A DNA stretch of 64,000 bases from Bdellovibrionales bacterium (GTDB taxonomy: Bacteria; Bdellovibrionota; Bdellovibrionia; Bdellovibrionales; UBA1609): NCBI GenBank assembly GCA_965203095.1, contig OZ241877.1, positions 1,568,001 through 1,632,000 on the forward strand, written 5' to 3'. The notes under the pieces were generated by a model, which had not been told where the DNA came from, did not search any database, and was given only the letters and a program-made list of their open reading frames with translations. A program made the position numbers and the translations under genes. Below are positions 4,601-49,683 of the stretch, one piece after another. The first letter of the stretch is position 1. Each line of letters starts with the position of its first letter.

Positions 4601-6652
4601 ATGCAGTTTAAAGACAAAATCAGAAATATTGGGATTATGGCCCATATTGACGCGGGGAAAACCACCTTGAGCGAAAGGATCTTGTTTTACACTGGCCTTA
4701 GCCGGAAAATGGGTGAAGTGCATGAGGGCACAACTGTAATGGATTGGATGGAGCAAGAGCAGGAAAGAGGTATTACCATTAGCTCTGCGGCCACTGCTTG
4801 TTTTTGGGAAGATGTTTATATCAATCTGATCGACACTCCTGGCCATGTGGATTTCACTATTGAAGTGGAGCGATCTTTAAGGGTTTTGGATGGGGCGGTG
4901 GCAGTTTTTGATTCGGCTCACGGTGTGGAGCCTCAATCGGAAACCGTGTGGAGGCAGGCAGATAACTATAATGTCCCTCGGATTTGTTTTTTAAATAAAA
5001 TGGATCGGGTGGGGGCGGATTTTTCATTTAGTTTAAAGGACATTAGTAAAAAACTCAGCATGATTCCAGTAGCTGTTCAATGGCCTGTTTACATAAAGGA
5101 GGAGTTTAAAGGGGTTTTGGATTTAGTTCAACAAAAAATGTTGCTTTGGGATCAAGATGAGATGGGCGAAAAATTTTCTACTCAGGATATTCCTCCGGAG
5201 CGGATGGATACAGCTCTCCAGCAGAGGGAACTTTTAATTAGCCAGTTGGCTGAGGGAGATCCTGCACTTATGGAAAAATATCTTCGGAATGAGGATTTAT
5301 CTGTGAGGGATATCCGCACCTCCCTTAGAAGTCAAACTTTGAGCCGGCGAATCACCCCTGTATTATGTGGTTCTGCTTTTAAAAATAAGGCGGTTCAACC
5401 TCTTTTATCCGCCATTCAGTATTATTTGCCTTCCCCCTTAGATATTCCTCCGGCAATAGCCAGAGACTTTAAAGGCCGGACAAAACTTTGTGAGGCTAAG
5501 GACGAAGAGCCTTTATCAGCACTGGTTTTTAAAATTGCTTTTGATGCTTTTGCTGGGGCTTTAACTTATATCCGAGTGTATTCTGGTGTCTTAAAAACAG
5601 GTCAGACTGTTTATAATTCAAGGCAAAAAAAGATAGAGAGAATCCATAAAATTTTAAAAATGCATTCCAATTCCAAAAGGGAACTGTCGGAGTTGCGGGC
5701 AGGGGATATATGTGCTGTGCCAGGCCTTAAATGGACACAAACAGGGGATAGCCTCTGTTTTAAAGAGCAGAATTTATCTTTAGAAAGGCTGACTTTTCCT
5801 GAGCCGGTTTTGTCCGTTGCGATAGAGCCGAAATCGGCACAAGATCAAGCAAAAATTGAGGAAGCCTTAATTAAGTTAAAAAGGGAGGATCCCTCTTGCC
5901 AGACAAAAAAAGATCCTGAAACAGGGCAAATCCTTTTAATGGGCATGGGGGAGCTTCACATTGAGATTTTATTGGACCGGTTGTTAAAGGATTATAAACT
6001 ATCGGCCCGTGTGGGTAAGCCTCAGGTTTCTTTTAGGGAGACTCCTAAGGCCTCTTGGCAAGGATCTGGAGTTTTTGATCAGGAGATACAAAACCGCCGT
6101 CATTTTGCTAAAATATCTATAAAGATAGAGCCTTTAGAGCAGGGAAAAGGCTTTATTTTAGACAAAGGCCCTTTAAGCCTCTCTTCTCCCGAAATTCTCT
6201 CCGCCATTGAAGAGGGTTTCCAGCAGGGGCTTTCCTCCGGTCCCCTTATGGCCTATCCTATGAGGGATTTAAAGCTTTCTCTATTAAGTTTAGAGTATAA
6301 GGAGGAGGACATAAGCCTTTTGGCCATTCGCTCTTGCTGTTATCAGACTTTTTACAAAGGAATCAGGGAAGTGGGAAGTGAGCTTTTAGAGCCGGTTTTC
6401 CGCTTAAAATTGACCAGTCCAGAGGAGTTTGCGGGGGCCATTGTGAATGACTTGAATGCTCGCCGGGGTCAGGTGGAGGCTATGGAAAAACAAGAAAATT
6501 TAAAAATAATTTCTGCCATTGTGCCTTTGACAGAGCTTTTTGGCTATGCGACAAAGATGAGATCTTTAAGTCAGGGTCGGGCCAGTTTGTCTATGGAAAT
6601 GCAAGGCTATAGCCTTTTGCCAGACAAGGAAAAGCAAAAACTTCTCATTTAG
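4601..6652 (+). CDS. fusA: Elongation factor G family GTPase, probably EF-G2-type paralog (not in str operon)
   Basis: [43 protein letters not shown]-like domain V. Confidence 0.93.
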
Positions 6653-12724: not shown

Positions 12725-13450
12725 GTGTTTGCTATTGTTCGTGTAGGCAGTCAGCAGTTTAAAGTCCAAGCTGGAGACTATATCCGCACTCCTTTTCAAA
12801 ATCATTTGGAAAAAGAGGAGATAGATCTACCTGTTGTGGCTTTCCGTTCTGAAAAGGCTTTTTTATTTGATTCTGCCGGTTTAAAAGGTGCTCAGGCAAG
12901 GGCTATGGTGGTTCGTCAGTTTTTGGGCAAAAAGGTCCTTGTTTTTAAGAAAAAAAGACGCAAGGGCTATCGCCGGACAAGAGGGCACAGGCAAAAAATC
13001 ACTGAGTTAAAAATTATAAAATTGTGCTCTCCAGAGGGGCAGATCTCTCAAGTTGAGAGCACTTCTAAAACCTCTGTTAAGAAGGCGAAAGCTGAGGGAG
13101 CTTCTAAAAAAGCATCTGTTAAGAAGGTGCAGGCTGAGGGAGCTTCTAAGAAAGCATCTGTTAAGAAGGTGCAGGCTGAGGGAGCTTCTAAAAAAGCATC
13201 TGTTAAGAAGGTGCAGGCTGAGGGAGCTTCTAAGAAAGCATCTGTTAAGAAGGTGCAGGCTGAGGGAGCTTCTAAGAAAGCATCTGTTAAGAAGGTGCAG
13301 GCTGAGGGAGCTTCTAAAAAAGCTCCTGTTAAGAAGGTGCAGGCTGAGGGAGCTTCTAAAAAAGCTCCTGTTAAGAAGGCGAAAGCTCAAAAAAAGTCAG
13401 CAGGTAAAACGGCAAAAACTTCGTCTAACAAAACCAATAAAAAGCTTTAA
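12725..13450 (+). CDS. rplU: 50S ribosomal protein L21 with long Lys/Ala-rich C-terminal repeat extension (GTG start after AAGGAG)
   Basis: FAIVRVGSQQFKVQAGD, VFKKKRRKGYRRTRGHRQ; directly upstream of rpmA. Confidence 0.93.
   Translation: MFAIVRVGSQQFKVQAGDYIRTPFQNHLEKEEIDLPVVAFRSEKAFLFDSAGLKGAQARAMVVRQFLGKKVLVFKKKRRKGYRRTRGHRQKITELKIIKLCSPEGQISQVESTSKTSVKKAKAEGASKKASVKKVQAEGASKKASVKKVQAEGASKKASVKKVQAEGASKKASVKKVQAEGASKKASVKKVQAEGASKKAPVKKVQAEGASKKAPVKKAKAQKKSAGKTAKTSSNKTNKKL
13091..13384 (+). repeat. 7 x 42-bp coding tandem repeat (AEGASKKA[S/P]VKKVQ)
   Basis: Units start at 13091, 13133, 13175, 13217, 13259, 13301, 13343. Confidence 0.95.
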
Positions 13451-37706: not shown

Positions 37707-37965
37707 GTTGCCCCTGGAAAAGTCTACATTTAATAGATCGCATAAGCAAAAATTCACTGGACTTTTCAGTTCTCACCTTGAGCAGGAATCCAGTTAGATA
37801 AAGCAAAGGTTATTCTTAGTTTCTTTGCCTAAAGGTCCGTCCCATTTCGGGACGGGGAATACCTTGGACCCTTATGGGACGGCCTTTAGGCAAAAGTCAT
37901 TGAAAAGTCTGCCCCTATAAAAACAGGGAATGAGAAGGGCTAACTGAGGCTTTTTCACGGGGGAC
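37707..37965. mobile_element. Composite 259-bp MITE-like element
   Basis: GTTGCCCCTGGAAAA...TTTTTCACGGGGGAC; hairpin 37824-37894; followed by TAAATA and a second element. Confidence 0.85.
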
Positions 37966-37971
37966 TAAATA

Positions 37972-38125
37972 GTTATCCGTGAAAAACCTTTGTTTTTTCT
38001 ATTCATTTCAACACTTTAGCTAATATCAAACATAGCTTAAAGTGTCATGAACCTAACTTTTTTTGTCCAAAGGACCATTCCATTTCGGTATAACAATACC
38101 TTGGATCCTCACCGAGGGCTTTGGT
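37972..38125. mobile_element. Adjacent MITE-like element with nested 64-bp module; right end not recognisable
   Basis: GTTATCCGTGAAAAACCTTTG..., insert 37991-38054, core CATTTCGGTATAACAATACCTTGGATCCTC. Confidence 0.8.
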
Positions 38126-38314
38126 TCTATGCTGAATTTTAAAAAACTGTCTCATTAAAGACGGGACTAAAAGCTTAAAACACACTTAAAGTTGAGTTTT
38201 AGGCAAGTTTTGGGCAAAAAAACAAAAAAATATAGACAAAAAGAAGAAAAACTGATTGAATTGCTTTGAACTTTCAAACCATACAGATTATGTTTTTTAT
38301 TAAAATTTTTTTCA

Positions 38315-38335
38315 CCCCCCCCCCCCCCCCCCCCC
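38315..38335. repeat. C21 homopolymer 27 bp upstream of the protease gene
   Basis: 21 consecutive C. Confidence 0.9.
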
Positions 38336-38362: not shown

Positions 38363-39241
38363 TTGAAAAATCCATTTTTTAGAGTTTTTTTCATCTTGTT
38401 GGTTTTTTTTGTTTTTTCTTTAAATAAATCTTTGGCTTTAACGGAAGAGCTGGTAGAACCTCCAGATTTTGGTGAAAAAGGTCCTCCAGCTAAAGGAATC
38501 ATTTTGGCCTTTAAACATTGGCCCCTCAGTAAAGAGGAATCCAAAGCCATTTTAAAAAAAGCCAATGCCTTAGAGTTAAGCAAAATTAACGAATACTCTA
38601 TTTTTAAATCTTATGTTTTTGAATGGGCGGAGTGGAAAAATGCGGAACAGGCCATCAGGGCTTGTGAGGGCTTTGCTGACTTTTCTAACATTTTAGATTA
38701 TTGCGAACCGGACTTTTTGCTCTCTCCCGCTACAGGTTTGTTGAGGAAAAAAGCCAAAAAAAATCTGCATAAAGAAAGAGAAAGAAGAGGCTTTGGCCCT
38801 GATACGGAACCGACTCCCGGAGTCAAATTGGCTCCTCCGCCGGTCTCCTCAGGTTCTGGCAATATTGTTTCTTGCAATATTGTCCCCACTCAACTGAAGT
38901 TGAAGGGAGGAGCACTTTCCGATTACTGGGCACAGGAGATGGTGGGGGCCGACCTCATGAAGGAAAGGCTGAAAAAAGCCCCTTCAATGAAGAAACATTT
39001 GGTGGCTGTTTTTGACAGCCCTTATAGCTACCGGCATGACATTGCCACCAAAAATATTATTTCCGGAAAAGGGAGACAGGCCACATTGCCAGATATAGGC
39101 AAAAGCATGACGGTTTTTGATTCTTCTCTTCCCTCTTATAATATGGATAACAGCCATTATTTAAATAGAGTCGCCAATGAAAAATGTGCTGATAAAAAAA
39201 AGCAAAAAGAGAAAACATCATTCTCTTCCACAAATTCTTAG
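38363..39241 (+). CDS. S8 subtilase N-terminal subunit: signal peptide, prodomain, catalytic Asp and His
   Basis: Signal ending SLA; YCEPD prodomain end; [27 protein letters not shown]. Confidence 0.7.
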   Translation: MKNPFFRVFFILLVFFVFSLNKSLALTEELVEPPDFGEKGPPAKGIILAFKHWPLSKEESKAILKKANALELSKINEYSIFKSYVFEWAEWKNAEQAIRACEGFADFSNILDYCEPDFLLSPATGLLRKKAKKNLHKERERRGFGPDTEPTPGVKLAPPPVSSGSGNIVSCNIVPTQLKLKGGALSDYWAQEMVGADLMKERLKKAPSMKKHLVAVFDSPYSYRHDIATKNIISGKGRQATLPDIGKSMTVFDSSLPSYNMDNSHYLNRVANEKCADKKKQKEKTSFSSTNS

Positions 39242-39276
39242 ATGAGGGAGATAATTTTATTTGAATAGGGTTTTTT

Positions 39277-40803
39277 ATGAAAACAATTTTCCTATTAGCT
39301 TTTATGTTGGTGTTTTTTCCAGAGATTTCTGAATCTGGTGGTCTTAAAAAAAAACTTATAAAAAAATCCACCCCAAAAACACCAGCCCCTCCGGCTATTG
39401 AGACTCCTACTGAATCCCACATAAGAATCAGTGACGATCCTTATGAGCAATGCAAAGCCACAGTTCTTCCCTCTTTTATTAATTTTTCTATGGGGTGGGG
39501 TGATCCCAAATACAAAGTCAAATTTGGCCCCTTTAAAACTAAAATAGATGCTGGTTTGGCTTCATATAGGGCTTTTGATTCTCTCTCCCCTCCGGCAGTG
39601 ATGGTGGCCGCGGCGGAAAACTCTCATCCTAAGCCTCTGGACCCTCTCAAAGTTAAAGCCTCAAAAGACAAAAACTTTAATATGATCCTTGTTGGAAACT
39701 TAGGCCCATCAGGCCATAAATGGCCTGATTCTCAAGAGGGGGAGGAGGTGCATATTTCAGCCCCTTCAGCCAACTTCCTCACATCTTCCAATAATGATGG
39801 GCATTACCGTAGGTTTGGTGGAACCAGTGGGGCCGCACCTTTGGTGACAGGTGCCCTGGCGGGTTTTGAGTGGCTATCGGGCTATCATCCCACAGCTGAA
39901 GAGTCCAAAATCCTTTTGGAAAAAACAGCCATAAAAACCCCTATATCCCTAAAAAAACCCAGGAAAAACGGGGCGGGAATGCTCAACTCCTACAAAATGG
40001 CTATGGTGGGAGAGGAGCTTAAAAGGCTTTGTGGGAAAAACATTTCCTGCTTTAAACAAAATATTAAAAATCCAGCCATTTATAAATTTCCTGAAGATCC
40101 CTCTTTAACAGCGGATGTCCAGCAGGCTTTTCCGGAATGCAGTCAGGAATGTGGAGGCACAGAGGAATCTTGCAAAAACAAAGCCGAAGTTTTTAAAAGG
40201 CTCCGGAAGGAAAGCCTCCTCAACCCCTCTAACAGGGTGGCTTACAGGCAGTTAGCCTGTATTTACAAAAACAGTGGTTTGAGGAAAAATGCCCAAGGTG
40301 CCTTCAATACCTATAAAGCTTTAACCCCAGATGGTCCCGCTTGCCAACAAGATGCCCACTGTATATTGGTTCCGGATTGCCCTCGTTCCCATAGTTTTGG
40401 TCTTGACTCCAGCTCTCAACATTTCTCAGAAGCTGAAGGATCTGGAGTTGTCATGTCAAAAGGAGCATTAAAAGATGTCACAAAAACAAATGTTAATCGC
40501 CCTCCCTTTCGCTCTATGACAAAGGCTCAGGCGGAAACTTATAAACTGGCGAATTGCTCTCGAGAGCAGTTATGCCAATACCCACCCGATATCCATGGTG
40601 GGCCACATAAAAAAAAGGTAGAGGGTAAGACTTACATTAGCGAGTGTGTCAATTCCTCTTGTGTTGTGACGGAAGAAATCCCAGCCAAGCTAAAGCCTTC
40701 AACCACGCCAGCTGAGTCTAGCCCAGCTAATCCTCAAGGATCCTCATCACCTGCTGAGGGGTCCTCACAGCCAGCCTCTAATGGTTCCAATGGCCAAAGA
40801 TAG
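39277..40803 (+). CDS. S8 subtilase C-terminal subunit: own signal peptide, oxyanion Asn, catalytic Ser, Cys-rich tail
   Basis: MKTIFLLAFMLVFF; INFSMG; VAAAEN; ISAPS; FGGTSGAAPLVTG. Confidence 0.85.
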   Translation: MKTIFLLAFMLVFFPEISESGGLKKKLIKKSTPKTPAPPAIETPTESHIRISDDPYEQCKATVLPSFINFSMGWGDPKYKVKFGPFKTKIDAGLASYRAFDSLSPPAVMVAAAENSHPKPLDPLKVKASKDKNFNMILVGNLGPSGHKWPDSQEGEEVHISAPSANFLTSSNNDGHYRRFGGTSGAAPLVTGALAGFEWLSGYHPTAEESKILLEKTAIKTPISLKKPRKNGAGMLNSYKMAMVGEELKRLCGKNISCFKQNIKNPAIYKFPEDPSLTADVQQAFPECSQECGGTEESCKNKAEVFKRLRKESLLNPSNRVAYRQLACIYKNSGLRKNAQGAFNTYKALTPDGPACQQDAHCILVPDCPRSHSFGLDSSSQHFSEAEGSGVVMSKGALKDVTKTNVNRPPFRSMTKAQAETYKLANCSREQLCQYPPDIHGGPHKKKVEGKTYISECVNSSCVVTEEIPAKLKPSTTPAESSPANPQGSSSPAEGSSQPASNGSNGQR

Positions 40804-40856: not shown

Positions 40857-41075
40857 GTTCCCGTGAAAACGGGAATCCATAGTCGTTCCCGTGAAAACGG
40901 GAATCCATAGTCGTTCCCGTGAAAACGGGAATCCATAGTCGTTCCCGTGAAAACGGGAATCCATAGTCGTTCCCGTGAAAACGGGAATCCATAGTCGTTC
41001 CCGTGAAAACGGGAATCCATAGTCGTTCCCGTGAAAACGGGAATCCATAGTCGTTCCCGTGAAAACGGGAATCCA
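40857..41075. repeat. Tandem array of 28-bp dRS3/REP-like palindromes (7 full + 1 partial)
   Basis: Identical unit GTTCCCGTGAAAACGGGAATCCATAGTC. Confidence 0.95.
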
Positions 41076-41129
41076 GAAATCTCTGTTCTTTCCGTAAAAC
41101 GAGACCAAAAACACTATTCTCTAAGTTTC

Positions 41130-41198
41130 TTTGTCCAAAGCCCGCCCCATTTCGGGACGGCAATACCTTGGACCCTCATGGGGCGGGCTTTGGACAAA
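41130..41198. repeat. Cargo hairpin of MITE family
   Basis: TTTGTCCAAAG-CCCGCCCCAT-core-ATGGGGCGGG-CTTTGGACAAA. Confidence 0.9.
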
Positions 41199-41235
41199 AG
41201 TAGTCAAGAGGATGCTTTTTTAGATCGAATTTTTA

Positions 41236-42942: not shown

Positions 42943-43944
42943 ATGTTTTTGATATTAATTTTAAAATCCGTTTTTTTTATCAGCTCAGTTTTTGCTAACA
43001 CAATGATAGAGCTGGGGGCCACTACGGGCATTGCCAATAGCCTTTCTCAACCTGCGGTCCATCAGCCCACAACAGCTATAAAAAAAGCTCAACAGGCGGT
43101 GCAAAAGTATGAAAAGGCTCAGCAAAATCGTTTGCCTCAGTCCAGTTCTTCTTCTCAGTTAGAGCCTAATGTGCCATCAGGGCCTTTGCCAATAGCTGGA
43201 GTAGCCAACATGTCAAGTGAAACAGGAGAAAAGGCCAAAGCCCCAGGCTCTGCCGTTGTGGGAGATAGTCCGGCACAAAATGAAGTGCCAAGGTCTGCCG
43301 TTGTGGGGGAGGGTCCGTCACAAAATGAGGTGCCAAAGTCTGCCGTTATGGGAGATAGTCCGTCACAAAATGAAGTGCCAAGGTCTGCCGTTGTGGGAGA
43401 TAGTCCGGCACAAAATGAAGTATCAAAATCTGCTGTTATGGGGGATAGTCCAGCACAAGCTGAGGTGCCAAAGTCTGCCGTTGTGGGAGATAGTCCGGCA
43501 CAAAATGAGGTGCCAAGGTCTGCTGTTATGGAAAGAGGTCCAGCACAAGCTGAGGTGCCAAGGTCTGCCGTTGTGGGAGATAGTCCTTCACAAAATGAAG
43601 ATCCCAGTGAAAACCCTCTGATAAAAGAAGAGGAATCAGCTAAATCGGAAATATTTTTTACTGAGGAGCCAACGGATGTAGAAGAATCCTCTTTAGATGA
43701 ATCTCAAAAAGAGGAGCAGGACCAACTGGCCCATCGGTTAAAGCAAAACAAGGCAGAAGAAGCCAATCCTGTAGACTATAAAGCAGATGTGCAGATTTTT
43801 TATAAAAGAAAGTGCCAAAACAATCAGAAAAACTGCAACAGAGGGCCTATCTTTACCAATATAAAAAGTGTGATTTTTAATTATAATCGCACTCAGGAAA
43901 GGAACTTAGCTCAGGCAAAAAAGAAGAAAAAAGCAAATCAGTAA
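42943..43944 (+). CDS. Secreted acidic low-complexity protein with 15-aa repeats (ORF track start 42889)
   Basis: Signal MFLILILKSVFFISSVFA; 8 x SAVVGDSPAQNEVPR-like units. Confidence 0.7.
   Translation: MFLILILKSVFFISSVFANTMIELGATTGIANSLSQPAVHQPTTAIKKAQQAVQKYEKAQQNRLPQSSSSSQLEPNVPSGPLPIAGVANMSSETGEKAKAPGSAVVGDSPAQNEVPRSAVVGEGPSQNEVPKSAVMGDSPSQNEVPRSAVVGDSPAQNEVSKSAVMGDSPAQAEVPKSAVVGDSPAQNEVPRSAVMERGPAQAEVPRSAVVGDSPSQNEDPSENPLIKEEESAKSEIFFTEEPTDVEESSLDESQKEEQDQLAHRLKQNKAEEANPVDYKADVQIFYKRKCQNNQKNCNRGPIFTNIKSVIFNYNRTQERNLAQAKKKKKANQ
43249..43608 (+). repeat. 8 x 45-bp imperfect coding tandem repeat
   Basis: TCTGCCGTTGTGGGAGATAGTCCGGCACAAAATGAAGTGCCAAGG consensus. Confidence 0.92.
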
Positions 43945-45055: not shown

Positions 45056-47344
45056 TTAAGGGCAGGTAATAAGGGAATTGCCGGTGTCTTTATCTTTTAA
45101 AGGTTCAGGTAGCTTGTTAGTATCTAAAGCATCTAAGCTGGCCGGCCTTTGCGGAGGCTTAGCCGTTTGCAGTAGGGAGGAGAGCTGAACTCCAAACTCT
45201 TTCATTCTCTCACCAAAATGATTATCACAGAGATCCACCTCATAGCCCATTGCTTTTTTTGTATTCATCAAGTTCACAAATCTTCTCATGGATGCAGGAA
45301 CAGGTTTTTGAATTCCGTTTTCGCAATTAGCACCCCCATAGTTTGTTTTACTATTACTGTCATTGACAGCAATAAAGGCGATGGTTTTTTGAGGGTTGCG
45401 ATTAAGCTTCGAACTGCTAAATAAGAAATCTATCATTCCTTGGTGGTTGTTATCATAATCGTCTTCATCCGTTAAAAAATACAGGGCCAAAACTGCCTGG
45501 GATCTAAAAAATCCTGGGAGACTGCTTTTAATTCTCATAACAGGTCGAAAAAGTCGTTCATCCTGTGAGCCTTCAGTTCCGGCATTCTTAATTGCTTTCT
45601 TTAATCTGTCCTGGATTTGTGTAATGCTGGCCTTTCGCCCCCGGCAATTGGGTTTATTGCACAAAAAACTTCCCGATAAAAGATTTTTATTATCTGTGGT
45701 GACTACAGCAATATGGGTATCCACTTCATCATTTAAAAACTCTTCAAAAAACTGGATTAAATTTTTGGCCAAGTTTTCTTGTTCATGTTTCATACTTCTA
45801 GAATTGTCTATCACAAAAACCATATCCAATTTTGCTGACCTATCCTCAGCTTGGCAAAAAAGGCTTTTGTCTGTCACTTCAAAGCGACCAGTTTTTGAAT
45901 TGCAAACAGCAGTGTAAATGGTAGGGGATCTGCCATTAAAATCATACATAAATCTTAAAGGAGCACCATGGGCCACTCTTGTTCCAATCTGATGTTTATA
46001 AATCTCTTTAATATGTATGCTTTTGTTGGGAATAGGCCCTTCACCGTCCGAACTAATGCCCGGAGTAAGAGTAATATTTCCACCAGAACTGCAAGAAAAT
46101 TTATTAGAGGGATATTCAGGAACACATCTATTGTTGCTTTTTTTCACCCGGCCCCAAACATTTTTTGTCTCTCCAGTTAAAGGGGCTTTATCGCATGTTG
46201 CACCCATAATATGCCATTTACCAGAGTAATCACAAAGGGCGTATATAGAGAGATAGCCAAAATGATTTCCTTTTATGGAAACTTCTTTGGGCCTTGCGAA
46301 AGTATCTCCATAATCTCCCTCTGGAAGGGAAATTCTTCCAGAAATCTCCGCCCGCCCTTTCCCCTGACATATAGCCTGCATATCAGGAGAGTAGCTCCCC
46401 ACTGGATCCTCATTTTTATCTTTTTTGCAATAGGGTTTCAGATCAATAGAGCATTTGGGATGAGATAAAACTTCGGCCTGGCACCAACTTTTTTTGTTTT
46501 TTCTGCATTTCACTGTTTGCCCCTGTTTGCTCCCTCCAGAGCAATCCTTGTTTGAGGAAAGCGATCGATACTTCTCATCCCCTGTGGAATAAACCGAATC
46601 CGCACAGGAGTTATAACACCAAAGGCTATTGTTCCAATCCCCTTTATGGCAGTAAGTGTGAGACAAACAAGAAAGACTTCGCCCATCGTCATAAGAGTTT
46701 AAAGTGAGAGTTTTATAGCTTTTTCCATGGGGGCCAGGGTTTTCAATTAAGCTGGAAGTAATAGGGTTGAGACTGGACTGATCATAAGTGAGAATATGCT
46801 TAACCCCTCCTTTGCAAATTTGGGTGGATTCTGAACTTTTAAGGCAGTTGGAGATTTTTCCTTGGTTATCCCTTACAACTTCTATATAAGAGCTTTTTTC
46901 CCTTTTTTGCAAATCCCCTTGGACCTTAGCACTTAAAGTCCATTGGATGTGGGCCAGATCCATATTGTTTTTCAAAGGGAAAAAGGAGACTTCAATATCC
47001 CCGTTAAGATTTTGTTTCCAATCTTTAAAAAGGCCCTTGGCTTTTGATGGGGCATGGAGGTCCAAATCAATGCTCAATTCCGCTCCAGGGATTCCGGAAG
47101 ATTCTGCTTTTTTCATGGTCTCGGCACAAAAGTCTGGGTTTTTAAAAAACTTTTCTATAAAATGGCTGGTTTCCTCTTGAGATATATAGCCCTCTGAGTG
47201 CTGAATGGTTTTTAAATAAAGGTGAAGGTAGCCTAAGGACATAAAAGCCACAACAGAGGCCACCACAGTGCCCACTATCAACTCTATAAGAGAGAAACCA
47301 CTTTCTTTTTTTAAGGGTAATGGCATGAGGTTTTTAAACTCCAA
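45056..47344 (-). CDS. Prepilin-type protein fused to a Cys-rich region and vWA domain
   Basis: G|FSLIELIV class III signal; DMVFVIDNSRSM MIDAS; AVVTTD; LTDEDD. Confidence 0.85.
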   Translation of the reverse strand: MEFKNLMPLPLKKESGFSLIELIVGTVVASVVAFMSLGYLHLYLKTIQHSEGYISQEETSHFIEKFFKNPDFCAETMKKAESSGIPGAELSIDLDLHAPSKAKGLFKDWKQNLNGDIEVSFFPLKNNMDLAHIQWTLSAKVQGDLQKREKSSYIEVVRDNQGKISNCLKSSESTQICKGGVKHILTYDQSSLNPITSSLIENPGPHGKSYKTLTLNSYDDGRSLSCLSHTYCHKGDWNNSLWCYNSCADSVYSTGDEKYRSLSSNKDCSGGSKQGQTVKCRKNKKSWCQAEVLSHPKCSIDLKPYCKKDKNEDPVGSYSPDMQAICQGKGRAEISGRISLPEGDYGDTFARPKEVSIKGNHFGYLSIYALCDYSGKWHIMGATCDKAPLTGETKNVWGRVKKSNNRCVPEYPSNKFSCSSGGNITLTPGISSDGEGPIPNKSIHIKEIYKHQIGTRVAHGAPLRFMYDFNGRSPTIYTAVCNSKTGRFEVTDKSLFCQAEDRSAKLDMVFVIDNSRSMKHEQENLAKNLIQFFEEFLNDEVDTHIAVVTTDNKNLLSGSFLCNKPNCRGRKASITQIQDRLKKAIKNAGTEGSQDERLFRPVMRIKSSLPGFFRSQAVLALYFLTDEDDYDNNHQGMIDFLFSSSKLNRNPQKTIAFIAVNDSNSKTNYGGANCENGIQKPVPASMRRFVNLMNTKKAMGYEVDLCDNHFGERMKEFGVQLSSLLQTAKPPQRPASLDALDTNKLPEPLKDKDTGNSLITCP

Positions 47345-48189
47345 TTGTATTCAAAGTCACAAATCCCGATGGCTTTTGCAACAGTCTTTTCCCCCTGGCA
47401 ATCGCTTTGCACTCGGGTTTTTTCAGGATCTTCTCTGGTTTCGGTCAAGCCAACCTGCTCCGGATCTCCTGGGCGGGCTTTTTCAGTATAATCTTTTCCC
47501 ACTTTAAATTTTCCTCCATGTTTTTGCGGGTCAAGAGTTAAATTATAAATGTATCTGCAACAGATCACTGTGATATTTTGTTTTTCACAGTTCAGTTTTT
47601 GAGTTTGTTCTTCAGAAGTGGAGCAGGTTTGGATTCGCCCTGATTTTTTTGCGATATAAATAGGGGCATAGATAAAAAACTGCTCTTTTCCTTTTGAAAA
47701 ATGCATTCGCATTGTGGCCACACTGTGGAACAAACCAGATTTTTGAGGGTGCTCCTCTCGGTCTAAAGAGAGGTTTTTAACCGCTTGGCTTTTGTAATCC
47801 TTATAGTTTTCAGGAGGTTGTTCTATGATTTTTATGGCTTTAACTCTGAGATTGGTTTTTTCATAAAAGCCTGATTTTTTATAAAAATCCTTATCGCTAA
47901 CTGAAAGATCAAGAATAGTTTTCCCGTCAAAACCTTTAATTAAAGTCACATCTTGATTTGTGTTTTTAAAAGTGTTCCGGCAAGCCTTTTCATTCAGTAA
48001 GCTATTCAAAATGATTTGCTTGAGTTTTCCTTGGCTGAGCTGTTGTTTTCGGGTTTTTTCCATCTCCATAAAAGAGTTAATGTTTTTGTGCAGGTTTAAA
48101 AGTAAAAATTCTACAAACAGGGCTACAAGTAAGACTGACAAAATAGTAAAAACTCCCTTTTCTGATTTTATCAAGCTTTTCATAAACAT
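47311..48189 (-). CDS. Pilin-like protein lacking Glu5 (PilX/GspK-like)
   Basis: SEKG|VFTILSVLLVALF in pilin operon. Confidence 0.6.
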   Translation of the reverse strand: MFMKSLIKSEKGVFTILSVLLVALFVEFLLLNLHKNINSFMEMEKTRKQQLSQGKLKQIILNSLLNEKACRNTFKNTNQDVTLIKGFDGKTILDLSVSDKDFYKKSGFYEKTNLRVKAIKIIEQPPENYKDYKSQAVKNLSLDREEHPQKSGLFHSVATMRMHFSKGKEQFFIYAPIYIAKKSGRIQTCSTSEEQTQKLNCEKQNITVICCRYIYNLTLDPQKHGGKFKVGKDYTEKARPGDPEQVGLTETREDPEKTRVQSDCQGEKTVAKAIGICDFEYNWSLKTSCHYP

Positions 48190-48204
48190 TTTTACCTCTA
48201 CTCA

Positions 48205-49164
48205 CTACGGAGTTGTGGAGCCTCTTTCTAAACAGATCAGGCTCTCTTGCCAAACGCCATCTCGGCAGTAAAAATTAAAGTTGCAGGCACAAAAATCTGT
48301 GACCCGCTCATACTGAAGAGTTTCTCCTGAAAGGCCTTTTTCCAAAGAGATTGAGATAGAGGGTGGGTTTAAAGGGTTGAGGCTTTTATCTGTGCAACTG
48401 ATCACAACAGTTTTATTTTTATCAGGTTTTCTTACTGTCATAAAAACTTTTTTTGTTTCTGCCAAGCAGGCGGGAGGTGTTAAGTGACAGCCTGCAATGA
48501 CTCCGTTTTTTAAAACTGTATAAATTTTAAGAGTTCTTTCAAACTCCCCTTTGTGGCTGTCTTTTAAATCTTCCATCCTTTCAGATACTCTTTTGCTTTT
48601 GGCCGGAGTTTTTTTTGATCTTCGAGAGTAAAAAATGATTTTAAGCCGGGCATGAGAATCAAAAACAGGGTCCTTTTCTAAACTCATGGATTTGATGGAA
48701 ATGTGGGAATCTTTTAAAACGGTATCCACGGGTTCATATTTGCTGGCCCCATAAGTTTTTTGAGAGACCTGATCTTTAACCGCATATAGGATATGGTATT
48801 CGTAAATGGGTTTTCCCTGAGCGTCTATTTTTCCCCGATGAGTCACAGGATCTATAAGGGGCCGGCGGATTTTAATTTCCGGAGCACTGTTGTCTGTTCT
48901 CTTAATGCCGGTATCTGCTGTGTTGACATATTGAGAATCTAATTTATCGCCTATAAGGCTATCACAATTCCCGTAAGACAAAATGCGATGGACACGATTA
49001 AAGTGCTGATCGATAATTCGAGAATCCATTACATATTGCAAACTGGAAATATGTCGGGCGGAGCGGGCAGTAATAGCAATAATTAAGCTCATAAGGGCTA
49101 AGCCTCCAAGGGCCTCAACGATTGACATTCCTGAAGAGTTTGAAATGTGGCTTGGCTTTTCCAT
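48205..49164 (-). CDS. Minor type IV pilin/pseudopilin-like protein
   Basis: SG|MSIVEALGGLALMSLII. Confidence 0.72.
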   Translation of the reverse strand: MEKPSHISNSSGMSIVEALGGLALMSLIIAITARSARHISSLQYVMDSRIIDQHFNRVHRILSYGNCDSLIGDKLDSQYVNTADTGIKRTDNSAPEIKIRRPLIDPVTHRGKIDAQGKPIYEYHILYAVKDQVSQKTYGASKYEPVDTVLKDSHISIKSMSLEKDPVFDSHARLKIIFYSRRSKKTPAKSKRVSERMEDLKDSHKGEFERTLKIYTVLKNGVIAGCHLTPPACLAETKKVFMTVRKPDKNKTVVISCTDKSLNPLNPPSISISLEKGLSGETLQYERVTDFCACNFNFYCRDGVWQESLICLERGSTTP

Positions 49165-49176
49165 AATCTATTTGCC

Positions 49177-49683
49177 CTATTGAGAAATGCAATCCGCACT
49201 TTCTGTTTTTGAGCAGTCACTTTGATTGTCCTTAAGCTTTTGCATGCAATTTTGCTCGTTAATAGTGAAATTGGGCAGTGTATTGTTTTGATTTGCTGTG
49301 CCCGCTTTGAAGGAATTATTAGCAGAGTCCACAGTGCAAGAGGATCCCAGTGGCATGTTGACAGTAGCCCCTTTGCTACTGTTGTGAAAGCCCAACTTGT
49401 AGTTTTTAGAATCCCACTTAAAGCCTATATCATCTACAGAGGCAGAGTAATGCCCGTTTTCTATTAAAAAACTTTGTTCCTGCCGGTAAAAATCGGACAA
49501 GCCGTATTTGGCTTCCAAGATTTTAGCAGAACCTTTTATAAAGCCATAGCGAGGCACAGCTATAGCCGATAAGATAATAATGATCACTATTACCACCAAC
49601 ACTTCCACAAGAGAAAAACCCTGCCTTTTGCGGTATTGGTTCTTATTTTGGTGGGCTACTTTTTGAATTTTTTTATTGAACAT
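49177..49683 (-). CDS. Type IV pilin
   Basis: QG|FSLVEVLVVIVIIIILSAIAVPRY; EAKYGL. Confidence 0.9.
   Translation of the reverse strand: MFNKKIQKVAHQNKNQYRKRQGFSLVEVLVVIVIIIILSAIAVPRYGFIKGSAKILEAKYGLSDFYRQEQSFLIENGHYSASVDDIGFKWDSKNYKLGFHNSSKGATVNMPLGSSCTVDSANNSFKAGTANQNNTLPNFTINEQNCMQKLKDNQSDCSKTESADCISQ

Follow-up and report, generated by a model that had tools for sequence, protein, structure and literature searches.

We analysed a stretch of 64,000 nucleotides from the genome of a Bdellovibrionales bacterium (GenBank assembly GCA_965203095.1, contig OZ241877.1, positions 1,568,001 to 1,632,000 of the forward strand; hereafter the window, numbered from its first letter), in which two adjacent open reading frames (ORFs), ORF1 and ORF2, share between them the catalytic residues of a subtilase of peptidase family S8. 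The genome measures 1.80 Mb in two contigs and its relatives are metagenome-assembled genomes of Bdellovibrionales or Oligoflexia. Both genes lie on the forward strand in different frames: ORF1 (38363-39241, 292 aa, TTG start) corresponds to the N half of the enzyme, ORF2 (39277-40803, 508 aa) to the C half, and a spacer of 35 bp (39242-39276) separates them, reproducing the layout given in a preliminary description made from the sequence. ORF1 opens with a putative Sec signal peptide (residues 1-25, 38363-38437, ending in S-L-A), followed by a prodomain (residues ca. 40-120, 38480-38722), a strand and a helix with the presumed catalytic Asp218 (39014-39016) and His225 (39035-39037), a helix ending at Cys275 (39185-39187) and a short tail. 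ORF2 likewise opens with a putative Sec signal peptide (residues 1-20, 39277-39336, ending in S-E-S before a glycine; leaders of relatives end in A-E-[AS]-G) and continues with a basic, proline-rich linker, Cys59 (39451-39453), the INFS strand, the presumed oxyanion-hole Asn115 (39619-39621), the catalytic Ser184 of the GTS motif (39826-39828) and a helical, cysteine-rich C-terminal region that ends in G-Q-R. The codons of Asp218, His225 and Ser184 begin at the positions reported earlier (39014, 39035 and 39826), and a cysteine indeed stands beside the break on each chain. The leader proposed for each ORF is borne out by hydropathy: the best nine-residue Kyte-Doolittle mean is 3.5 at the N-terminus of ORF1 and 3.3 at that of ORF2, the leaders of both halves have a basic-hydrophobic-small residue layout by eye and hydropathy, and residues 5-24 of ORF1 form a helix in its model. 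Basic GL[LK][RK]KK segments, also pointed out previously, exist in both chains and were found only in the window's nearest relatives.

The two genes taken together align end to end with one single-chain homolog, P0048. Residues 8-276 of ORF1 align with residues 5-283 of P0048 (35% identity, E 5e-52) and residues 45-368 of ORF2 with residues 284-619 (47%, E 2e-98), the two halves abutting without overlap. The model of P0048, built from an alignment of 89 rows (predicted local distance difference test score, pLDDT, 85.6), matches whole subtilisin (Z 28.0, root-mean-square deviation (rmsd) 2.4, 233 aligned residues, model 183-472 to chain 1-275) and, from the prodomain onward, pro-Tk-subtilisin (330 aligned, Z 27.1). 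In this model a strand ends at Asp224, a helix begins at His232, helix 264-282 closes with Cys282 and Cys298 immediately precedes the INNS strand. The ORF1 model is arranged alike, with strand 215-218 ending at Asp218, helix 225-233 starting at His225 and helix 257-285. Pfam Peptidase_S8 matches ORF2 over residues 70-218 (model 114-273, E 1.2e-8, 35.1 bits against a cut-off of 21.8), its Asn115 and Ser184 align with the AAGN and GTS motifs of subtilisin, and the C-half profile matched 79 PDB sequences, the best 60 of which are all subtilases. The preliminary description had expected complementary Peptidase_S8 matches on both ORFs; in the event ORF1, alone or as its eight-row profile, gave no S8 match against Pfam or the PDB sequences. 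Foldseek on the ORF1 model returned nothing at E ≤ 0.001, and a wide structural search was dominated by common ferredoxin-like folds. The prodomain is modelled confidently (pLDDT 96-98) with the ferredoxin-like fold of I9-type subtilase propeptides; its match to POIA1 is weak (Z 7.2, rmsd 3.6, 72 residues aligned) and accompanied by many to unrelated folds. The catalytic half of ORF1 modelled alone had lower confidence and no clear fold match. Asp218 and His225 are seven residues apart, while the spacing in subtilisin BPN' is 32 residues. The HDI context of the histidine, previously called atypical, is the norm of this family, with His in all 50 aligned rows, and is odd relative to S8 in general; this context and the short Asp-His spacing are family traits that explain why S8 profiles miss ORF1. 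The place of ORF1 in the S8 domain therefore rests on the single-chain homolog, through which its supposed subtilase kinship holds: its homology is with the N-terminal half of single-chain proteins whose model is a full subtilisin.

With respect to classification, the pair has the S8 sequence match on ORF2, a subtilisin fold over the whole catalytic domain (tested on P0048), the S8 order Asp, His, Asn, Ser across the two genes and an I9-like N-terminal propeptide, as judged from the confident fold of residues 40-120 and the alignment of P0048 with pro-Tk-subtilisin. It departs from the usual one-polypeptide catalytic domain in that two ORFs encode it; to our knowledge, a single polypeptide is the usual state of S8 and not a MEROPS criterion. 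Assignment to the sedolisins (S53, Glu-Asp-Ser triad) was rejected, since the histidine is invariant and the top fold matches are S8A enzymes.

The split is real and not an assembly slip. The junction was checked in assembled contigs from four runs rather than in reads: X1 and X3 derive from one sample, possibly the source sample, X4 from a second sample of the same study and X5 from another study, labelled sponge metagenome. The X1 and X3 contigs cross both genes with 0 substitutions, an X4 contig (38605-39346) passes the junction with 0 differences and 0 gaps, and no indel was listed between 37882 and 41140 in the run contigs. A contig of 280 nt from X5 (39253-39532) covers the start of ORF2 with two differences and stops short of the ORF1 stop codon. 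The contigs of two samples thus carry the spacer unchanged, with no indel joining the ORFs. Every route through the spacer to ORF2 meets stops, and fusing the two frames takes at least two base edits. A frameshift at the A8 run after Cys275 was rejected as a one-chain route, as a stop is met before ORF2 in either shift. The earlier argument against a frameshift artefact is therefore upheld.

The same break was found in related genomes, as had been anticipated. Among 109 genomes of the family, 24 had a match at E ≤ 1e-30, and after removal of duplicates the split was read in DNA at 17 loci (window included) in 14 Bdellovibrionales genomes of three genera; in this group of uncultured Bdellovibrio-like bacteria, homologs are thus often divided at this point and not always fused. 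At all 17 loci an N half immediately precedes a C half that has a hydrophobic leader of its own, and the break falls between the same two cysteines; the N half ends 1 to ca. 350 residues past its conserved cysteine (three N halves run off the end of the analysed DNA), the C half begins 45-140 residues before its own, and at L036 and L037 an ATGA start-stop overlap couples the halves. A protein search with the C-half profile gave 280 matches, the best 120 of which were examined and passed through a motif filter, with 26 rows dropped and nine relabelled by hand; among the matches listed there are at least 56 stand-alone C halves with a leader, at least 19 single-chain proteins with the cysteine pair and at least 28 without it. 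The N-half search gave 30 matches, including 18 stand-alone N halves besides that of the window, all ending 1-45 residues after the cysteine, which all 18 keep, and none with a Pfam label. Two more short N-half matches without the cysteine look like fragments of cysteine-less genes. Down to 30% identity, in split and single-chain proteins alike, Asp and His are found in 50/50 rows, Ser and Cys59 in 68/68 and Asn in 66/68. Single-chain members with the cysteine pair have a loop of ca. 10-110 residues between the two cysteines. A scan of metagenome contigs yielded 33 loci, all distant (best E 7e-34; at most five were used as outgroup or checked), and no close split locus.

Several family members deviate in architecture. 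The N halves at L040 (3051-4787) and L041 (3002-4741) extend past the cysteine by a Thr/Gly-rich linker and a domain of ca. 230 aa, with the C-terminal motif of the C half at the end, and at L045 (4288-4995) and L131 (reverse strand, 1296-2465) a small cysteine-rich domain is added after the cysteine. At L061 (3720-4532) the prodomain of the N half is tandemly duplicated and the C half ends soon after the catalytic domain. Single-chain members at L048, L050 and L127 form tandem arrays, many with long HEAT-repeat tails.

Relaxed selection, which would have spoken for decay, was not seen: dN/dS (ratio of nonsynonymous to synonymous substitution rates, Nei-Gojobori) is about 0.2 in each half, and both halves are under purifying selection. 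For L036/L037 the values are 0.214/1.03 = 0.21 (N) and 0.195/1.12 = 0.17 (C), for L040/L041 0.187/0.92 = 0.20 (N) and 0.152/1.23 = 0.12 (C); the window compared with L035 (N 0.49/2.3, C 0.45/1.6) is near saturation, and dS of the N half was not obtained for two of nine pairs. These data bear on the alternative that the locus is a decaying pseudogene or an assembly error, which would suit small genomes holding several frameshifted copies; it is already largely refuted and very improbable given that the junction is identical in contigs of two samples, the break point is common to three genera, both halves are constrained and every C half has a new leader. Furthermore, sequence identity among the N halves varies together with that among the C halves over 14 loci (Mantel r 0.85), which shared descent predicts as well.

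A tree of the C-terminal core, built with FastTree from 126 rows and 281 columns (the cysteine column was retained and lies mostly outside the signal), placed 61/61 split rows and 22/23 single-chain cysteine rows in one clade with support 99, together with none of 42 cysteine-less rows, most of the rows called split being database proteins labelled by their N-terminus and not by DNA context. The 23rd single-chain cysteine row is a distant outgroup row. Cysteine-less single-chain members were never split, either in the DNA read or in the 42 tree rows; splitting recurs across the family and is restricted to the clade with the cysteine pair. Within this clade the split or single-chain state changes 10 times, at least four changes being forced by well-supported branches; a thinned set of 62 rows, from which six long branches and 22 near-duplicates had been left out, gave seven changes in IQ-TREE, at least three of them forced. 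Approximately unbiased (AU) tests on the 62 rows rejected monophyly of the split rows (p 2.9e-5), and with it a single origin of the split, as well as monophyly of the single-chain cysteine rows (p 2.0e-5). As one origin is rejected, fission and refusion recurred. P0054, a single-chain protein nested among split rows (support 99), keeps an 'IVAYEDPYRQC' segment typical of C-half starts, and this nesting and the retained segment suggest a refusion product. In the simplest reading, the cysteine pair of single-chain members is a disulfide closing a loop, which could then lengthen, break and rejoin. The pair would have come first in evolution and freed the loop between the cysteines to grow, and fission or refusion would have occurred several times at this single point.

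Subsequently, we modelled ORF2 residues 50-372 with ORF1 residues 36-280. The complex scored 0.90 and the best of three controls 0.01; the mark used for this score is reached by 116 of 157 solved complexes and two of 215 mismatched pairs. At least 89% of contacts were common to the runs, and the pLDDT of the partner was at least 83, compared with 63 when ORF2 was replaced. The modelled interface comprises ORF1 residues 111-125 (the prodomain end), 211-219, 224-225 and 274-275 and ORF2 residues 58-60, 62-76, 114-116 and 182-185, with the surest contacts between ORF2 67-69 and ORF1 214-216. An interface, sought as evidence of assembly, is thus present in the models; it is large and includes His, Ser, Asn and both Cys positions. 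His225 and Ser184 are both among the confident interface positions. Searches of the genome gave two Thioredoxin_4 (DsbA-type) matches and four to secretins above the cut-off, by which disulfide formation and onward export would be available to the pair.

Since each half holds only part of the active site, the enzyme would need assembly from two exported halves. Both halves would be translated from one operon and, judging by their sequences, each would be exported on its own, through Sec and by means of its own leader. Once in the periplasm, the two chains are modelled to join by strand pairing, INFS of ORF2 lying against VAVFD of ORF1; this would complete the subtilisin sheet and place Ser184 and Asn115 beside Asp218 and His225. 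A Cys275-Cys59 disulfide between the chains would stand in for the lost peptide bond, as the equivalent cysteines would close a short variable loop in single-chain relatives. From the interface and known subtilases, the ORF1 prodomain probably packs over both halves, chaperones their folding and would be removed by a cut at about residues 120-125 once the enzyme has assembled. The mature enzyme would act outside the cytoplasm on a protein substrate, most likely of prey or host. A heterodimeric S8 protease whose halves come together after Sec export and are held by a disulfide staple is the best reading of the locus, with a probability of about 0.78, and it is likely that the pair makes an active two-chain enzyme. 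The two-gene heterodimer proposed in the preliminary description is thus supported: an indel joining the ORFs, a lack of S8 kinship of ORF1, universally fused homologs with relaxed selection and a missing interface would each have spoken against it, and as far as they could be checked none was found.

Several points weigh against the heterodimeric protease. In addition to the missing S8 match of ORF1, the seven-residue spacing and the labelling of tree rows by N-terminus, halves of a split gene tend to pass the complex test by likeness to solved subtilisins, so that the score shows fit and not binding; catalysis, the disulfide, leader cleavage and the substrate we infer. A strict cleavage-site pattern occurs in just 11 of 56 stand-alone C halves, and by their sequence many C-half leaders may be uncleaved anchors. 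Frameshifts also occur in the family: two of the 17 split loci (L043, L061) have one within the N half, and an A9-A12 run just before the catalytic Asp accounts for eight frameshifts in family members, at L001 (6261-6290, a single-chain paralog in the window's genome), L043, L045, L052, L127 (twice), L128 and L129, the same shift being needed in 7/8. Genome-wide A/T runs number 180 of length 9, 17 of length 10 and none longer; with so sharp a fall above 9, homopolymer under-calling is the likely cause of these frameshifts, and slippage-based control a less likely one. If the halves were one polypeptide made by frameshifting or readthrough, the second leader would be an internal segment, and to this fit the recurrent A-run frameshifts, the A8 run after Cys275, the single base edit that could fuse 5 of 11 loci tested and P0142, in which a leader-like stretch lies inside a single frame. 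Such a product is nonetheless extremely improbable: two events are needed at the other six loci (the window and five others), both A8-run shifts reach a stop before ORF2, and true single-chain relatives, P0142 excepted, have no hydrophobic stretch between the cysteines. It is also improbable, to a lesser extent, that the halves form a subtilisin fold with little or no protease activity and a binding or scaffold role. The Asp-His segment is much shorter than that of subtilisin and escapes S8 profiles, and the complex model gives contacts and not triad distances, yet the four catalytic positions and the prodomain are kept to 30% identity in split and single-chain members, and pseudoproteases usually lose catalytic positions.

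A further alternative is that the halves are not a fixed pair. Pairing of C halves with N halves of paralogs, or the keeping of the halves in different places until a signal arrives, would make the split a regulatory device rather than a neutral break. This would agree with the several genomes that carry two split loci plus single-chain copies, the many C halves with a long leader and no clear cleavage site, the C-terminal domains of ca. 70-350 aa added to the N halves of L040, L041, L045 and L109 and the short C-terminal motif that often ends both halves. We consider it unlikely, as an N half immediately precedes all 17 leader-bearing C halves read in DNA, the two halves vary together in identity, start-stop overlaps point to 1:1 synthesis and the window's genome has a single split pair. 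The motif (G-x-[VI]-[QRK], G-Q-R etc., a pattern fixed after inspection of the sequences) is found at the end of 45 of the 56 split C halves, 11 of the 19 single-chain members with the cysteine pair and none of the 28 without it; among N halves it ends 5 of 19, and in the genome as a whole 10 of 1264 ORFs; N halves at L035, L036, L037, L039, L040, L106 and L107 end in the kind of motif of their own C half, and ORF1 of the window does not. It was rejected as a genome-wide export signal, as the 10 matching ORFs show no bias to signal-bearing ones, and is family-specific; it may be a sorting or active-site-binding tail. A bolder interpretation, possible but doubtful, is that the split was selected as a means of control: the protease would be a disulfide-stapled AND-gate, with halves active only where they meet, e.g. 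in prey or host. Equally tentatively, the halves would then be exported, anchored or delivered separately, with some uncleaved C-half anchors, added N-half domains and exchange of halves between paralogs.

Known systems resemble the proposed heterodimeric protease in part. With the S8A enzymes (subtilisin BPN', Savinase, pro-Tk-subtilisin) it shares the fold of catalytic domain and prodomain, seen in the single-chain homolog (Z 27-28), the order Asp, His, Asn, Ser, and the signal peptide and N-terminal propeptide (PMC9549277). It differs from them in the division of the domain over two genes after the helix preceding the IN-x-S strand, the Asp-His spacing of 7, the cysteine pair at the break and the helical, cysteine-rich C-terminal region. 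The nearest precedent for a two-chain triad is SpyCEP/ScpC of Streptococcus pyogenes, the product of one gene that cuts itself after export between Asp and His, the chains remaining joined non-covalently (PMC10624844). It demonstrates that an S8 triad divided between two associating polypeptides can be rebuilt into an active enzyme (PMC10624844); here, however, each half has a gene and a leader of its own, the break falls between His and Asn/Ser, and the chains are probably joined by a disulfide. Membership in the SpyCEP type was rejected because of the two genes and because Asp and His lie on the same chain. LicP retains its prodomain as a second chain (PMC6054071) and ASP of Aeromonas sobria receives its folding helper in trans, as an external chaperone (PMC9549277), but both have the whole triad on one chain. 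The single-chain Bdellovibrionales paralogs, with or without the cysteine pair and many with HEAT repeats, share 35-50% identity, the short Asp-His segment and the prodomain, and differ in being one gene. Split-Doa10 and the aphid sodium channel likewise arose by fission into two genes for one working protein, but these are membrane proteins split between domains or helices, whereas here the break runs through the active site of a secreted hydrolase. In Bdellovibrio bacteriovorus there are 15 subtilisin-like genes, to which a part in predation is attributed (PMC2605481), and from these the guess of a prey or host substrate derives. In the accessible part of a survey of the subtilase family the words 'split' and 'Bdellovibrio' are absent (PMC9549277), and our literature search, with partial coverage that took in few subscription journals and no supplements, found neither a two-gene subtilase nor any literature on the present split family.

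The split pair is flanked by an opposite-strand arginine-decarboxylase-like gene and an NhaA-like gene (names from translations), with repeats around, and a scan for promoters and terminators at the locus gave counts near chance (9 vs 6.9 and 6 vs 5.8). A C21 tract on the forward strand (38315-38335) ends 27 nt before the ORF1 start and might act as a slipped-strand (phase-variation) element. Seven of nine C/G runs of at least 11 on contig C1 are poly-C 27-182 nt ahead of an ORF; these tracts, 14-22 nt long, are that of ORF1 and those at 113725, 191449, 472733, 981082, 1223165 and 1414917, the latter six preceding ORFs of ca. 800-880 aa, five with near-identical N-termini. Poly-C also lies ahead of the split loci L039 and L121, and such tracts are possible phase-variation elements. 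Directly after ORF2 (40857-41075) a palindromic unit of 28 bp, with 53 genome matches, is repeated exactly in tandem 7.8 times and resembles repetitive extragenic palindromes, and a dispersed inverted-repeat element of 70-80 bp that flanks the locus on either side (37818-37895, 38060-38130, 41125-41200; 21-43 genome matches) resembles miniature inverted-repeat transposable elements. Coding tandem repeats occur at 43249-43600 (45 bp, 7.8 copies) and 13073-13379 (42 bp, 7.3 copies). Judging from translations, a reverse-strand cluster at 45056-49683 contains prepilin-like ORFs, one with a vWA-like C-terminal part, and the single-chain paralog in L001 likewise adjoins a prepilin-like gene. Elsewhere, a conventional S8 gene (G000:C1:7314-8174, L032, 153 bits) lies beside a secretin match at 5525-6043.

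The usual picture of a subtilase is that of a single-chain zymogen, folded with its prodomain covalently attached. The present subfamily as a whole tolerates a break in the middle of the catalytic domain, with halves that would be exported separately, and only after gain of a cysteine pair at the break. The family therefore allows a test of whether a disulfide can license gene fission, and the break offers a natural split site for conditional (two-component) subtilisins. As N halves carry no Pfam label and C halves resemble truncated S8 genes, such pairs go unnoticed or are written off as pseudogenes, and annotations of apparently truncated S8 genes are worth re-reading. If the halves do act as an AND-gate, this family, in which one cysteine-closed loop was broken and rejoined repeatedly, would amount to a natural experiment in making a protease active site conditional.

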